33,489 nt of DNA from IMG/VR virus record IMGVR_UViG_2541047932_000021; one strand, 5' to 3'. The notes beneath the pieces were generated by a model. That model had not been told where the DNA came from, did not search any database, and worked only from the letters and a program-made list of their open reading frames with translations. A program made the position numbers and the translations under genes. The DNA is from a virus. Its lineage: Duplodnaviria > Heunggongvirae > Uroviricota > Caudoviricetes. Positions 1-3,329 of the stretch are shown piece after piece. The first letter of the stretch is position 1. Each line of letters begins with the position of its first letter.

Positions 1-1002
1 TTACCCTCTATTGTCAAAAGGGTTCAATTCAACAGCAGCCTCTAAATGACCTGGAGCAAAATGCGCATAACGCATAGTCATTTTTATATCGCTATGCCCC
101 AGTATTTTTTGCAACACAAGAATATTTCCGCCCCGCATCATAAAATGACTGGCAAACGTGTGACGTAGCACATGAGTTAATTGCCCATCAGGAAGCTCGA
201 TCTTCGCTCTCTTAATTGCAGCGTCAAAAGCCTCATAACATGGTGAAAATAGCGCTCCTCGTTTTTTAGGAAGCATAGCCTGCAATTGAGGTGAAATCGG
301 TACAGTGCGGTTCTTCTTTCCTTTAGTTTTAACAAATGTGATTCGACCGGGCAGTACTTGAGATTGCTTTAATCCTTCTGCTTCACTCCACCGAGCACCC
401 GTCGCAAGCCCAATACGGACAACAACCCCCAAATCTTTATTCCGTGACTCATCACACGCAATCAGAAGGCGTTCAATCTCATCTACATACAGAAACGCCA
501 GTTCCTTTTCTTCCTCACGAAACTTGCGAATACCAGTCAGGGGGTTTTCACCAGACCACTCCCCAAGGCGCTTCAGTTCGGCAAAAACAGCATGTAGATA
601 TGACTGCTCGCGATTAACGGTTGCTTCACTAAGTTTTTTCTTCCCCTTGGGATTCCATTCTCCTGATAGCCTTCTTTCCCGATAAGTAGCAAACATATTT
701 TTGTCAAACTGAGAAGCAAATGGATCTCCCAGCCTGGAACAAATCGCCTCAAGTTTGACTTTGCGCTCTGCACCAGAGGACAAGGTTTTACCGTACATCT
801 CAAACCAACGAGCAATCAACTCAGAAAGACGAGGACCAGAACCATCTTGAAACTCGTCTCCAACTCTACTATTCATTAAACGGCGCTCATAAGAGAGCGC
901 CTCACTTTTTGTCGCAAACTGTTTACGAATGCGTTTTCCCGATGCCCCGTAGGGATAACATTCGCAAAGCCATTTACCTGATGGAATCTTACGAACCGAC
1001 AT
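1..1002 (-). CDS. int: P2-family tyrosine integrase
   Basis: 333 aa; motifs TGARWSEA, RITFVKTKGKKNRTVPIS, HVLRHTFASHF, MTMRYAHFAP match P2 Int catalytic R-H-R-Y region; stop codon at positions 1-3. Confidence 0.9.
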   Translation of the reverse strand: MSVRKIPSGKWLCECYPYGASGKRIRKQFATKSEALSYERRLMNSRVGDEFQDGSGPRLSELIARWFEMYGKTLSSGAERKVKLEAICSRLGDPFASQFDKNMFATYRERRLSGEWNPKGKKKLSEATVNREQSYLHAVFAELKRLGEWSGENPLTGIRKFREEEKELAFLYVDEIERLLIACDESRNKDLGVVVRIGLATGARWSEAEGLKQSQVLPGRITFVKTKGKKNRTVPISPQLQAMLPKKRGALFSPCYEAFDAAIKRAKIELPDGQLTHVLRHTFASHFMMRGGNILVLQKILGHSDIKMTMRYAHFAPGHLEAAVELNPFDNRG

Positions 1003-1007
1003 TTTAG

Positions 1008-1355
1008 TTACTTATCACATAAATCAAATGCAGCCTTAGTGACATCCCCCAGACTCTTTTTTAACCCTGGGGCGGCATCATTATCTAGCCAAAATGGATT
1101 ATTGTTATCTAACGGTAACGCACCAAATGTTTTACCTTTTATTCGAGCCAAACCTGTAAGTGCATATAACTTATTATCGTCAAAATTCATCACATAAGGA
1201 TTACCATCAAGACACTGTAATTGAACCTCATCAGTATTAAATGGCCATACCCCATTGAAACTCTCACGTTCAATAGTTTTAAAAGGCATTGCGACGGCGG
1301 AAAAAGAAAACATAGATAAAAAAGTAACTAATAGTTGAACCTTTTTTACTTTCAT
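1008..1355 (-). CDS. Small secreted protein, unknown function (possibly YebY/DUF2511-like); cargo gene between repressor and int
   Basis: 115 aa; N-terminal signal peptide MKVKKVQLLVTFLSMFSFSAVA; two Cys (C49, C113); family guess is from memory only. Confidence 0.55.
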   Translation of the reverse strand: MKVKKVQLLVTFLSMFSFSAVAMPFKTIERESFNGVWPFNTDEVQLQCLDGNPYVMNFDDNKLYALTGLARIKGKTFGALPLDNNNPFWLDNDAAPGLKKSLGDVTKAAFDLCDK

Positions 1356-1384
1356 ATCATTACCTCAATTTAGCTCAAGTAAGA

Positions 1385-2035
1385 TTACAAATTAAAAAAC
1401 GCCCTAGAAATGACACCGCCTACCAAAACCCCTACGCAGATAAAGAATATTATTTCTTTTGGATAAAGTCGGATTAATTCTGAAGCACGAAGTCGGACTT
1501 CTGGTAAGGTCGAACTCTCTGTGTGGCTTGATGCCGATTGTTGCTCTAACCACGACAATGCAGACTGTAACTGAGAACGAGTAAGATCGTTTAAACGTCC
1601 TGTACCGAAATTGATATGGCAATACCGCAGAAGTTTTTGTCGAAGTCCACAGTCTTCACTGTTACGTAGTAATAAACTTACAAGAGCCTTACAGGCATCA
1701 TGATCTTTACATCGCTCAAGCATTGCATGCAGAAAACTCTCCGCTGTTTTATATTGATTTACTGTCATATCATCAATACCAGCTACACCAATCTCCGCAT
1801 GTACTTTTTGCCAAATAATAAACGCTTCAGTATTGCTAGCTTCTGCAATAGCAGCAACCAAGCTATTTAGCTCCTTACGCTGAGCCTTAAGCAAAGGGCG
1901 ATCGTCATCATCATTATTCGAAGGGATTGCGATATTGACGGTCTGAGAACCATCATATCGCTCTATCTGAATATTCTTTTCGTGAAAATCACGCCCAGCA
2001 ACGCGATTGTTTGAACCGTTTGAGTTGACGGCCAT
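1385..2035 (-). CDS. Tail-anchored membrane protein, unknown function; cargo gene in the lysogeny operon
   Basis: 216 aa; single C-terminal hydrophobic helix IIFFICVGVLVGGVISRAFF; N-terminal motif NGSNNRVAGRDFHE shared with the C-terminus of the upstream repressor; AT-rich. Confidence 0.6.
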   Translation of the reverse strand: MAVNSNGSNNRVAGRDFHEKNIQIERYDGSQTVNIAIPSNNDDDDRPLLKAQRKELNSLVAAIAEASNTEAFIIWQKVHAEIGVAGIDDMTVNQYKTAESFLHAMLERCKDHDACKALVSLLLRNSEDCGLRQKLLRYCHINFGTGRLNDLTRSQLQSALSWLEQQSASSHTESSTLPEVRLRASELIRLYPKEIIFFICVGVLVGGVISRAFFNL

Positions 2036-2050
2036 GTCACCTCCCTACTA

Positions 2051-2455
2051 TCACCTACCCTTAGTTTCGTTATAGTCACGACCAGCGATACGGTTATTAC
2101 CACCAGAAATATTTAACTCACGTCCTGATGGCTGAGTTTCCTTTTCACTGATCGCACCTTTTAAAGCCCCAATCACCGCATTTTTCACATCTAACGAAGC
2201 TGCTCGAAAGCGAGTAATCAACTCCTGCTCATCATCGTTATAAGTTTCAGGTGAGTGAATTCCCAACACAACATACTGAACATCAAGGCCAAAACGAGAC
2301 AGCGCTGCCAAATACGCAGCATCAGGAAAGCTATCTCCTTTCTCATATCTAAGCTGAGTTAGCTTTTTGACTCCACCAATGTCGCTCATGGCAACTTGAC
2401 TAAGTCCCAATCTTTCCCTTTCCTCACGCAACCGCTGACCAATATCATTTTTCAT
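2051..2455 (-). CDS. XRE-family HTH repressor, likely immunity repressor (functional analogue of P2 C / 186 CI)
   Basis: 134 aa; N-terminal HTH LGLSQVAMSDIGGVKKLTQLRYEKG; first gene of the leftward operon reading into int; divergent from the early operon. Confidence 0.7.
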   Translation of the reverse strand: MKNDIGQRLREERERLGLSQVAMSDIGGVKKLTQLRYEKGDSFPDAAYLAALSRFGLDVQYVVLGIHSPETYNDDEQELITRFRAASLDVKNAVIGALKGAISEKETQPSGRELNISGGNNRIAGRDYNETKGR

Positions 2456-2530: not shown

Positions 2531-2737
2531 ATGAAACAAGTTCTTCACGATACCAGATCACGCATTCCGCGTAACACCGCCACAGGTCCAAGACTGGCAC
2601 TTCGGCTGTCCCTCGAGGAGCGAGCCGTCATTGATGAAATGGCAGCTAAAGAACAACGCTCATCCTCTAACATGGCGCGCATGATCTTCCTTCGCGGCCT
2701 AGAGCTAACCCAGAAAGAACAAAACAAATCTTCCTGA
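2531..2737 (+). CDS. Ribbon-helix-helix (Arc/Mnt/CopG-like) DNA-binding protein, first early gene
   Basis: 68 aa; beta-strand then two helices pattern LALRLSLEERAVIDEMAAKE...SSNMARMIFLRGLE; no obvious SD. Confidence 0.5.
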   Translation: MKQVLHDTRSRIPRNTATGPRLALRLSLEERAVIDEMAAKEQRSSSNMARMIFLRGLELTQKEQNKSS

Positions 2738-2753: not shown

Positions 2754-2957
2754 ATGTCAGGTATAACCATCAATATCAATGTGAATGCCCCCTATGTATC
2801 CCTGCAGAAATATGCAGAGATAACAGGTATCCCTCTTAATACATGCAAAAAGATGTTGGCTGACGGTCGAATTATTATCCGACCCAAACGCGCCAAAATG
2901 GAAAAGCCTGAAGTAAACCTTGTGGCGATGTTAAAAGACGCTTTGGCTAACAGCTAA
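2754..2957 (+). CDS. Cox/excisionase-like HTH regulator
   Basis: 67 aa; SD GGAGG 8 nt upstream; segment APYVSLQKYAEITGIPLNTCKKMLADGRI resembles the P2 Cox DNA-binding region. Confidence 0.5.
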   Translation: MSGITININVNAPYVSLQKYAEITGIPLNTCKKMLADGRIIIRPKRAKMEKPEVNLVAMLKDALANS

Positions 2958-2978: not shown

Positions 2979-3329
2979 ATGAAAAAAAACGCTAATAATC
3001 CATACTCCAAATTTCGTAATGGCGTAGAACGCCATGTACACCACGTCGCTACCAGTGCATCACGTAGTAACAGTCGCTATAACCTGAACGAGACGCACGC
3101 AACACCGGATGGCCACGCTGTAAAACAAATCGGCGAGCATGCCTGGCTGATTGAGAAAGCTGGAATCGTGGTCCACAAATGCCCACGCAATCCGTTTACC
3201 GGAAACCGCATTTTTGCATTGAACTGCGGCGACAATCACTTCGGGCAGGATTTCACATTATACGAAGCACTTCGCACGGTTGATCGTCTGCTTCGCGGGC
3301 AAAGTTTTATTAAACAGGCTGATTTATAA
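2979..3329 (+). CDS. Hypothetical early protein
   Basis: 116 aa ORF in the early operon, same strand, tight spacing. Confidence 0.45.
   Translation: MKKNANNPYSKFRNGVERHVHHVATSASRSNSRYNLNETHATPDGHAVKQIGEHAWLIEKAGIVVHKCPRNPFTGNRIFALNCGDNHFGQDFTLYEALRTVDRLLRGQSFIKQADL

Follow-up and report, generated by a model that had tools for sequence, protein, structure and literature searches.

A terminal motif shared by a putative immunity repressor and the adjacent Flk_N-domain membrane protein of P2-like and Mu-like prophages

The left end of a P2-family prophage (IMG/VR record IMGVR_UViG_2541047932_000021; 33,489 nucleotides, the whole stretch analyzed, hereafter the window) carries two genes between the gene of a presumed immunity repressor and the integrase gene int. 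One encodes a 216-amino-acid protein with a Flk_N domain and a C-terminal membrane anchor, and the other a 115-amino-acid relative of the periplasmic protein YebY. An earlier reading made from the letters alone (the sequence-only reading) had taken both as cargo genes forming one lysogen-expressed envelope system. Our analysis separates them. The C-terminal tail of the repressor and the N-terminal tail of the Flk_N protein carry the same short motif, and its sequence type is matched between the two partners at every locus. We favor the reading, with a probability of about 0.5, that the Flk_N protein is a dedicated partner of the repressor through these tails and that the YebY-like protein is an independent, swappable periplasmic moron. 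The features that carry this reading are the following.

Positions 2051-2455, minus strand: XRE-type helix-turn-helix (HTH) protein of 134 amino acids, presumed immunity repressor, first gene of the leftward operon.
Positions 2066-2113, minus strand: repressor C-terminal motif, residues 115-130, NISGGNNRIAGRDYNE, found by regular-expression scan, 4 residues from the stop.
Positions 1385-2035, minus strand: Flk_N-domain protein of 216 amino acids, predicted to be tail-anchored and to face the cytoplasm (phrog_5825, NCBIfam Flk, PF27202 label).
Positions 1979-2029, minus strand: Flk_N N-terminal motif, residues 3-19, VNSNGSNNRVAGRDFHE, found by regular-expression scan, with a predicted local distance difference test score (pLDDT) of 50-60.

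Results

The shared tail motif

The repressor ends in ...NISGGNNRIAGRDYNETKGR and the Flk_N protein begins with MAVNSNGSNNRVAGRDFHEK... The consensus drawn from 49 repressor homologues is SINVSGSGNRVAGRDYNENKK, and that drawn from 146 Flk_N homologues is AVNSTGEQNRVAGRDFNENNIQ. The motif spans about 20 residues, is rich in glycine and asparagine, and reads in outline SINVSGxGNRVAGRDYNE in the repressor and VNSxGxxNRVAGRDFNE in the Flk_N protein. A six-frame scan of the window and 24 loci with regular expressions placed it at the repressor C-terminus and the Flk_N N-terminus, with one exception, a Pseudomonas locus in which a third protein, also a membrane protein, bears it at its N-terminus. 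Its placement varies little: across loci, the repressor copy ends 4-6 residues from the stop and the core of the Flk_N copy lies 9-12 residues past the start.

Four motif types were recognized, each present in both partners: NRVAGRD[FY]NE, QQFxGxVxxVxxGD[IV]xN, FNGxxxGQFxxxxIIN and QIAGxxIY. The type is always matched within a locus, as illustrated by the following tails.

Pectobacterium: repressor QIFNGDISGQFAGNQIIN, Flk_N QEFNGTAQGQFSSRDIIN.
Gilliamella: repressor GEGQIAGGNIY, Flk_N AEQIAGRDIY.
P. aeruginosa and a metagenome contig: repressor GQQFNGPVGTVT[ST]GDVVN, Flk_N QQFH..V.QVAAGDIKN.

When repressor tails and Flk_N heads of seven representatives were permuted against each other, the total score of the cognate pairs was reached by 6 of the 5040 permutations. 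Motif type is independent of host taxonomy, the canonical type occurring in Enterobacterales and in two Pseudomonas species and another type in P. aeruginosa and on the metagenome contig. The two proteins also lack the motif arrangement together: P0316, a close relative of the repressor that is common in P2-like prophages of E. coli, has neither the motif nor a Flk_N gene downstream, where a zinc-ribbon protein and another tail-anchored protein are encoded. The simplest reading of a motif that is terminal, co-varying, disordered in the monomer models, carried by adjacent gene products and lost from both together is that the two tails bind each other. On these comparative patterns the Flk_N protein is probably the physical partner of the repressor.

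The DNA encoding the motif is identical between the two genes at 24 of 36 positions, and the differences fall mostly on third codon positions and are synonymous, which points to selection on the protein. A recent duplication of DNA, considered as the source of the motif, was rejected on this identity. The motifs do flank a gene junction, and in the window the two open reading frames (ORFs) share a frame, with three stop codons between them, as might be left by an old gene fission or a duplication at the junction. On such an account the motif would be a functionless relic and the genes ordinary hypothetical morons. We find this barely credible, given that the motif has been retained in both proteins although Flk_N proteins are only 23-28% identical across lineages, that its coding DNA diverged through synonymous changes, and that motif types are matched within loci.

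Both motif copies lie on disordered termini, a setting typical of degrons and docking motifs, and they could instead form a short linear motif through which one binding factor, for instance a host protease or adaptor, a chaperone or a phage antirepressor, regulates the two proteins together. Since motif type does not follow taxonomy, a host factor is hard to reconcile with the matched changes, which makes a third-party binder less likely. Furthermore, the P2-like and Mu-like contexts described below share no third gene that could serve as a candidate, and we regard this explanation as improbable.

Behind the main motif, a second and degenerate repeat, (D/V)G(R/S)x(T/I)(V/I)N(I)x(I/L)P, seems to occupy residues 23-38 of the Flk_N protein; relatives show it much more clearly, e.g., 'DQLIGRDIVNISLP'. 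Two rungs per molecule would fit a stack of the beta-solenoid type. Note also that the exceptional locus, from Pseudomonas carbonaria (L025, 2926-4591), encodes three consecutive motif proteins. Its repressor (195 amino acids) has two tandem motif copies about 17 residues apart, its third protein (152 amino acids) has a zinc ribbon and two transmembrane segments, and a PDC-S31 candidate defence gene lies downstream.

The Flk_N gene accompanies the repressor

We read 31 related loci, 28 of which are Flk_N loci; the locus scan used 12 closer sequences. The Flk_N gene follows a short XRE repressor gene of the same family in all 28, in both P2-like and Mu-like prophages of Enterobacterales, Gilliamella and Pseudomonas. 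P2-like prophages have the fixed order repressor, Flk_N gene, variable stretch, int, which was seen in E. coli, Klebsiella, Erwinia, Rosenbergiella, Mixta, Izhakiella, Enterobacter, Kosakonia, Buttiauxella, Yersinia, Hafnia, Serratia, Salmonella and Citrobacter. In Mu-like (transposable) prophages of Pectobacterium, Gilliamella, P. aeruginosa and other Pseudomonas, the repressor-Flk_N pair is followed by variable genes and then by a holin/SLT lysis cassette. The pair is also found on one metagenome contig. By this conservation of gene order the Flk_N gene travels with the repressor and is not free cargo. The idea of a pair of cargo genes breaks down at this point, one of the two being a constant companion of the repressor with a co-varying terminal motif.

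Several loci depart from the common pattern in detail. In the Mu-like loci L027-L033, divergent ner-like and transposase genes lie on the other side of the pair, and the one to four variable genes include lipoproteins, a TIR-TM gene and a 285-amino-acid unknown; in L031 the Flk_N gene is in two fragments. One Salmonella enterica locus (L037, 767-4193) has a tandem array of three HTH repressor paralogues (141, 124 and 121 amino acids) before the Flk_N gene, two with the canonical tail motif and one with a degenerate tail, and a 440-amino-acid protein with a C-terminal BRCT domain in the slot before int. The E. coli loci L034-L036 (3001-4132) encode a motif-less relative of the repressor, a 117-amino-acid zinc-ribbon protein, a 140-amino-acid coiled-coil protein with a C-terminal transmembrane anchor of its own, and int. 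This set has the appearance of another small membrane module occupying that interval. Related proteins of 123 and 106 amino acids are located after the Flk_N gene in L023.

The Flk_N protein and the repressor

The 216-amino-acid protein matches phrog_5825 (7e-103), and the NCBIfam Flk model (NF007987) aligns with residues 35-166 (E=7.8e-16). PF27202 (Flk_N) is the precomputed Pfam label on every one of its full-length homologues; family membership is based on these labels and on the NCBIfam alignment, the Pfam set scanned directly having lacked PF27202. The protein was rejected as a true Flk equivalog: it scores 58.3 bits against an equivalog cut-off of 353 and has one Flk_N unit in 216 amino acids. 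An exhaustive search of 1.8 billion representative proteins returned only 92 relatives. Those of the phage type have about 190-215 amino acids, one Flk_N unit, a C-terminal hydrophobic anchor and the conserved N-terminal tail, whereas true Flk relatives have about 330-410 amino acids, two units that match in two stretches, and no N-terminal tail motif.

An AlphaFold2 model built from a 45-sequence alignment (mean pLDDT 86) divides the protein into a disordered stretch, which comprises the first 44 residues of the monomer, and two ordered features.

Positions 1520-1903, minus strand: helical Flk_N core, residues 45-172, five helices with pLDDT of about 97.
Positions 1394-1465, minus strand: C-terminal transmembrane anchor, residues 191-214, an AlphaFold2 helix supported by hydropathy.

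The anchor is the sole hydrophobic segment of the protein (Kyte-Doolittle maximum 2.36 at hydropathy window 195, within windows 187-198), and a hydrophobic C-terminus is kept throughout the Flk_N family. The single C-terminal transmembrane helix proposed earlier is borne out by both the model and the hydropathy. Lacking a signal peptide and ending in this one helix, the protein is predicted to be tail-anchored in the inner membrane. Sequence searches for a solved structure gave no meaningful match to it.

The chromosomal relative Flk (Fluke/RflH; Salmonella, E. coli) is a cytoplasmic inhibitor with a membrane anchor. It maintains the early mode of the flagellar export gate, and its binding partner is probably FlhA-C (PMC13344023). 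The phage protein shares with it the helical Flk_N domain, the C-terminal anchor and the cytoplasm-facing orientation. However, Flk is chromosomal, has about 330 amino acids and two Flk_N units, and lacks the GRD tail motif. A lysogenic conversion of flagellar or type III secretion, with the phage protein acting like Flk on the FlhA/FlhB export gate, could be imagined from this homology, from the presence of Flk-length proteins in the family, from the site at which Flk works and from the frequency of the module in O157:H7 and other pathogenic E. coli. The module is, however, abundant in Klebsiella pneumoniae, a non-flagellate species, one variant occurring on 754 contigs, which makes a flagellar action unlikely as its general role. 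The single unit and extra tail motif of the phage protein, as opposed to the two units and missing motif of Flk, weigh in the same direction, and we hold this explanation to be highly doubtful.

The 134-amino-acid HTH protein matches Pfam HTH_31 and HTH_3 below their cut-offs, PHROG families of transcriptional repressors and regulators, and, weakly, NCBIfam RstR and DicA. None of its Pfam or NCBIfam matches reported an autocleavage domain. AlphaFold2 gives an HTH domain (residues 1-65, pLDDT about 90), two helices at 74-106 and a disordered tail at 105-134 (pLDDT 45-48), in which the motif lies.

The YebY-like protein and the variable slot beside int

The second gene and the integrase gene complete the leftward series.

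Positions 1008-1355, minus strand: YebY-like protein of 115 amino acids (PF10709, PDB 7n0j, phrog_2950).
Positions 1-1002, minus strand: int, tyrosine integrase of 333 amino acids (Pfam Int_N 5e-32, Phage_integrase 2.5e-22; phrog_1 integrase).

The 115-amino-acid protein matches phrog_2950 (9e-40) and, with 28.4 bits against a cut-off of 21, positions 2-87 of the 87 in PF10709 (YebY/DUF2511). The solved structure of YebY (PDB 7n0j) was retrieved by phmmer with E=0.003 and 21 bits over 80 aligned residues, and both of its cysteines are aligned; the conserved Cys48 and Cys113 codons lie at 1212-1214 and 1017-1019. A hydrophobic N-terminus ending in AVA (about 1290-1355; Kyte-Doolittle peak at residues 6-24) was called as a leader peptide from sequence reading and hydropathy, not from a SignalP-type prediction. 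This leader and the homology to a periplasmic protein agree with the signal peptide assigned in the sequence-only reading, and the ORFs of both genes were confirmed between repressor and int on the same strand.

YebY is periplasmic, has a Cys48-Cys113 disulfide and adopts an MlbQ-like fold, and some yebY homologues of Enterobacteriaceae are flanked by a recombinase gene on one side and a gene for a phage CI-type repressor on the other (PMC8689200). The likeness of the 115-amino-acid protein to YebY (from the E. coli AZY operon) and to MlbQ (lantibiotic self-resistance) consists in the above-cut-off PF10709 match and the two disulfide cysteines. It differs from YebY in being only distantly related, in having no copC/copD neighbor and in belonging to a small phage-type clade of 18 clusters. 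Most likely it is a lysogen-expressed moron in a swappable slot beside int, a periplasmic protein of YebY/MlbQ fold with a disulfide bond, and would bind a periplasmic ligand, which could be a peptide, a metal or a component of an incoming phage.

The slot itself holds very different genes from locus to locus: YebY-like and DUF8087 proteins, BRCT proteins of 288-292 amino acids and one of 440, a 291-amino-acid PDC-S48-like protein, membrane proteins of 242-244 amino acids, secreted proteins of 126 and 198 amino acids, or nothing. PADLOC matches among the variable genes include TIR-TM (4e-103), PDC-S31 (2e-17) and a PDC-S48-like gene (1e-8). These unrelated occupants, and the recognized defence candidates among them, indicate that the int-side slot is a genuine accessory and defence slot of which the YebY-like gene is one occupant. 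The proposal of a variable insertion at the junction of repressor and int thus holds for the YebY-like gene and not for the Flk_N gene, which is constant with the repressor. In P2 the major hotspots described so far are gpA-gpQ and sites inside the tail genes (Rousset et al. 2022, PMC9122126; PMC13586616). The region 'between integrase and primase' figures in a 2026 survey as a minor defence hotspot, with 8% of P2 systems (PMC13586616). The int-side slot is likewise variable and holds PADLOC candidates; the Flk_N gene itself, in contrast, is not variable cargo.

Could the two proteins nevertheless form one two-gene envelope defence or exclusion system, tail-anchored plus secreted, carried as cargo by the lysogen? 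Both genes lie inside the repressor operon. Neither protein has a match in PADLOC-DB v2 (E<=1) or among known toxin families, so that the earlier statement that they were unrecognized stands with respect to defence families, although both belong to named families, Flk_N (PF27202) and YebY/DUF2511 (PF10709). The phage-type YebY clade is small, and its members adjoin a Flk_N gene in every context read (the window and six other loci, from Citrobacter, Klebsiella, Serratia, Rosenbergiella and Erwinia), including the Erwinia locus, in which gene order is rearranged. Divergences are also alike, 63-70% identity for YebY and 60-66% for Flk_N, and the constant adjacency may therefore reflect co-inheritance in a single lineage. 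Against a joint system, most Flk_N loci have unrelated genes in the slot and no YebY-like gene, and the Flk_N gene tracks the repressor and not the YebY-like gene. Furthermore, the two products would occupy different compartments. Facing the cytoplasm, the Flk_N protein exposes hardly any residues to the periplasm and is thus unlikely to touch the YebY-like protein directly, and the label 'envelope system' is a weak one. We judge a joint system to be unlikely.

Operon organization and the switch region

The intergenic gaps are 15 bp between repressor and Flk_N gene, 29 bp between Flk_N and YebY-like genes, and 5 bp between the YebY-like gene and int, and no terminator-like site was found within 900-2800. 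Such spacing fits a single operon, the leftward, lysogenic one, of which int is the last gene; packing is tight enough for the co-transcription with the repressor that had been assumed. The repressor ORF closes with three in-frame stops, TGA TAG TAG (2036-2053, minus strand), and the Flk_N ORF starts 9 nucleotides past them in the same frame, preceded by a GGAGG ribosome-binding site. This common frame is a property of the window and is not kept at other loci. Fusion of repressor and Flk_N protein by readthrough or frameshift was rejected because of the three tandem stops here and the out-of-frame ORFs elsewhere.

Upstream of the repressor lie the switch and the divergent early genes.

Positions 2456-2530, no strand: switch region between the divergent operons, with a promoter-like site and an inverted repeat (consensus matches only).
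Positions 2531-2737, plus strand: Arc-like small repressor (phrog_3431, 1e-28).
Positions 2754-2957, plus strand: Cox-like excisionase/repressor (annotation of the 97%-identical phage 520873).

The sole strong promoter-like site, by consensus match only, is a rightward one at 2465-2493 (TTGACA-17-CAAAAT), which precedes the Arc-like and Cox-like genes; these diverge from the HTH repressor gene. A 19-nucleotide imperfect inverted repeat, also a consensus match only, lies at 2444-2462/2478-2496. The Arc-like ORF (2531-2737, plus strand) overlaps an antisense ORF of 60 amino acids (2545-2727, minus strand), and in several genomes the gene callers or RefSeq call a 45-amino-acid protein on the repressor strand in place of the Arc-like gene (e.g., L007 4365-4502; L044 3661-3798).

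The G+C content (fraction of guanine plus cytosine) is 0.35 at 1050-1500, 0.40-0.44 over the remaining interval and 0.52-0.60 from about 4200 onward, in agreement with the AT-richness described previously.

Host phage, distribution and prevalence

The window is a prophage of the P2 family, genus Xuanwuvirus. In its structural region it shares about 95% identity with phages 500465-2, P884B11 and 520873, and at its left end 97% with phage 520873. P88, another Xuanwuvirus, has int followed directly by a 93-amino-acid C repressor and Cox, with no genes between C and int, so the contrast drawn earlier with P2, in which C is next to int, is valid even within the genus. Nucleotide similarity to P88-type phages with P2-type C/Cox immunity starts inside the DUF4761 gene, at about 3012-3027, a point that is the right-hand boundary of a swapped immunity module. 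Between phages the entire immunity module varies, and P88 has a plain C/Cox module instead.

A 1458-bp stretch is present in 521 of 5426 complete E. coli genomes (about 10%), in 480 of them at 99% identity or more, and carriers include O157:H7, O111, O121 and the O104-type strain 55989. RefSeq labels the module 'membrane protein | helix-turn-helix | DUF2511', adjoining yecA, and the two genes are annotated as 'hypothetical' or 'membrane protein'. The module also occurs in prophages of Klebsiella, Salmonella, Yersinia, Serratia, Pectobacterium, Gilliamella and Pseudomonas. Among isolated phages both genes are found in phage 520873 only, frameshifted and unannotated, and for this reason the comparative evidence comes almost entirely from prophages. 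The record of that phage (NC_049344, 1039-3485) splits the annotation of int in two and leaves the Flk_N and YebY-like genes without any, and tblastn takes three pieces to match each of these two genes; the split int and three-piece matches suggest frameshifts or sequencing errors in the record.

Discussion

The favored reading, a Flk_N protein dedicated to the repressor through paired tails, can be expressed as a chain of events. The Flk_N protein would be held in the inner membrane by its last 20 or so residues and face the cytoplasm. The C-terminal tail of the repressor and the N-terminal tail of the Flk_N protein would pair homotypically as beta-strands, possibly in an amyloid-like stack; the contact may be a simple beta-zipper or a templated amyloid. 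Such pairing would tie repressor molecules, or information on the state of the repressor, to a membrane-anchored protein, whose helical Flk_N domain could bind a further cytoplasmic target, as chromosomal Flk does at the export gate. Two outputs rank about equal: regulation or sequestration of the repressor (switch control), and a membrane effector guarded by the repressor (abortive infection or exclusion). Since no autocleavage domain was reported for the short repressors, sequestration at the membrane would provide a switch control independent of SOS.

One motif on the products of adjacent genes is the genomic signature by which amyloid-signaling pairs were found, and bacterial BASS motifs connect Bell-domain effectors with NLRs. 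The closest precedents are HET-s/NWD2 of fungal amyloid signaling and Bab/Agp, an abortive-infection pair from an E. coli prophage; Bab carries the BASS11 motif C-terminally and Agp carries it N-terminally (10.1101/2024.11.07.622273). Like Bab/Agp and HET-s/NWD2, the genes studied here are adjacent, share a motif of about 20-25 residues at the upstream C-terminus and downstream N-terminus, and include one membrane partner; like Bab/Agp, they are prophage-borne. The architecture common to BASS and FASS pairs is thus present, with one motif joining the C-terminus of one product to the N-terminus of its neighbor, whereas the partners are not a sensor (NLR/STAND-type or other) and a cell-death effector (Bell/HeLo-like). 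An XRE repressor and a Flk_N protein stand where those pairs have a Bell/HeLo effector and its NLR or TPR-PIN sensor, and the motif has another sequence. HET-s has two pseudo-repeats, which compares with the tandem motif copies of one Pseudomonas repressor.

Two other systems offer partial parallels. Lambda cI-rexA-rexB also has accessory genes co-transcribed with the immunity repressor in lysogens, one with a membrane product; it has no homology to the repressor-Flk_N module. To our knowledge, CI has no motif in common with the Rex proteins, nor are these conserved companions of its family. Type II toxin-antitoxin systems resemble the module in the N-terminal DNA-binding domain, disordered C-terminal tail and tightly linked downstream gene, and we know of no general similarity of antitoxin tails to the toxin's own terminus.

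This type II-like layout, an HTH protein with a disordered tail followed by an effector, invites a more specific account, in which the Flk_N protein is a membrane toxin that self-assembles via the motif and is capped or templated by the repressor tail. Loss, displacement or unfolding of the repressor, e.g., by the antirepressor of an invading phage, would then trigger membrane damage and abortive infection. Bab/Agp is a precedent, sister loci have defence genes directly downstream, and in one Pseudomonas locus the motif recurs at the N-terminus of a further membrane protein, which combines a zinc ribbon with two transmembrane segments. However, the Flk_N core resembles a partner-binding helical domain and not a pore former, its relative Flk is a non-toxic regulator, and the module is kept in about 10% of E. 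coli genomes with no addiction-type decay seen. We therefore view a guarded toxin as unlikely. More broadly, and only tentatively, one can envisage a portable immunity module, employed by P2-like and Mu-like phages alike, in which the master repressor is wired to a Flk-family membrane protein by a self-complementary, possibly amyloid-like motif. Homotypic templating might activate a membrane effector once the repressor is displaced (abortive infection), or it might disable the repressor upon a membrane signal (SOS-independent induction).

Several points weigh against the pairing of repressor and Flk_N protein as we favor it. Charged residues (R, R, D, E) are part of the motif, whose sequence matched no catalogued BASS family, no formal comparison having been made. 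Co-variation could stem from gene conversion between nearby segments and not from co-evolution of an interface. The HTH protein is probably the immunity repressor, an assignment made by position and family. Finally, the constant adjacency of YebY-like and Flk_N genes may leave room for a functional link between them.

The protein families were already known and the locus is common; the motif pairing proposed for repressor and Flk_N protein appears to be new. Our literature searches found no description of phage Flk_N proteins or of the motif pairing, and a 2011 survey of P2 regulatory regions goes no further than 'less common, heterogeneous' ones. If the tentative portable module is real, it would be the first lysis-lysogeny switch with motif or amyloid signaling as a built-in part. 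With a membrane partner physically coupled to the repressor, the induction cue of P2-like and Mu-like prophages with short repressors, and the other roles of the repressor operon in lysogens, would become a directly testable question. If the tails pair, the signature of one motif on neighboring products would reach beyond NLR-type immune pairs, and the Flk family would gain a second, phage-borne context that may illuminate how Flk itself acts. The int-side slot, in which TIR-TM, PDC-S31 and PDC-S48-like genes are already found, is a compact site in which to search for new defence genes.

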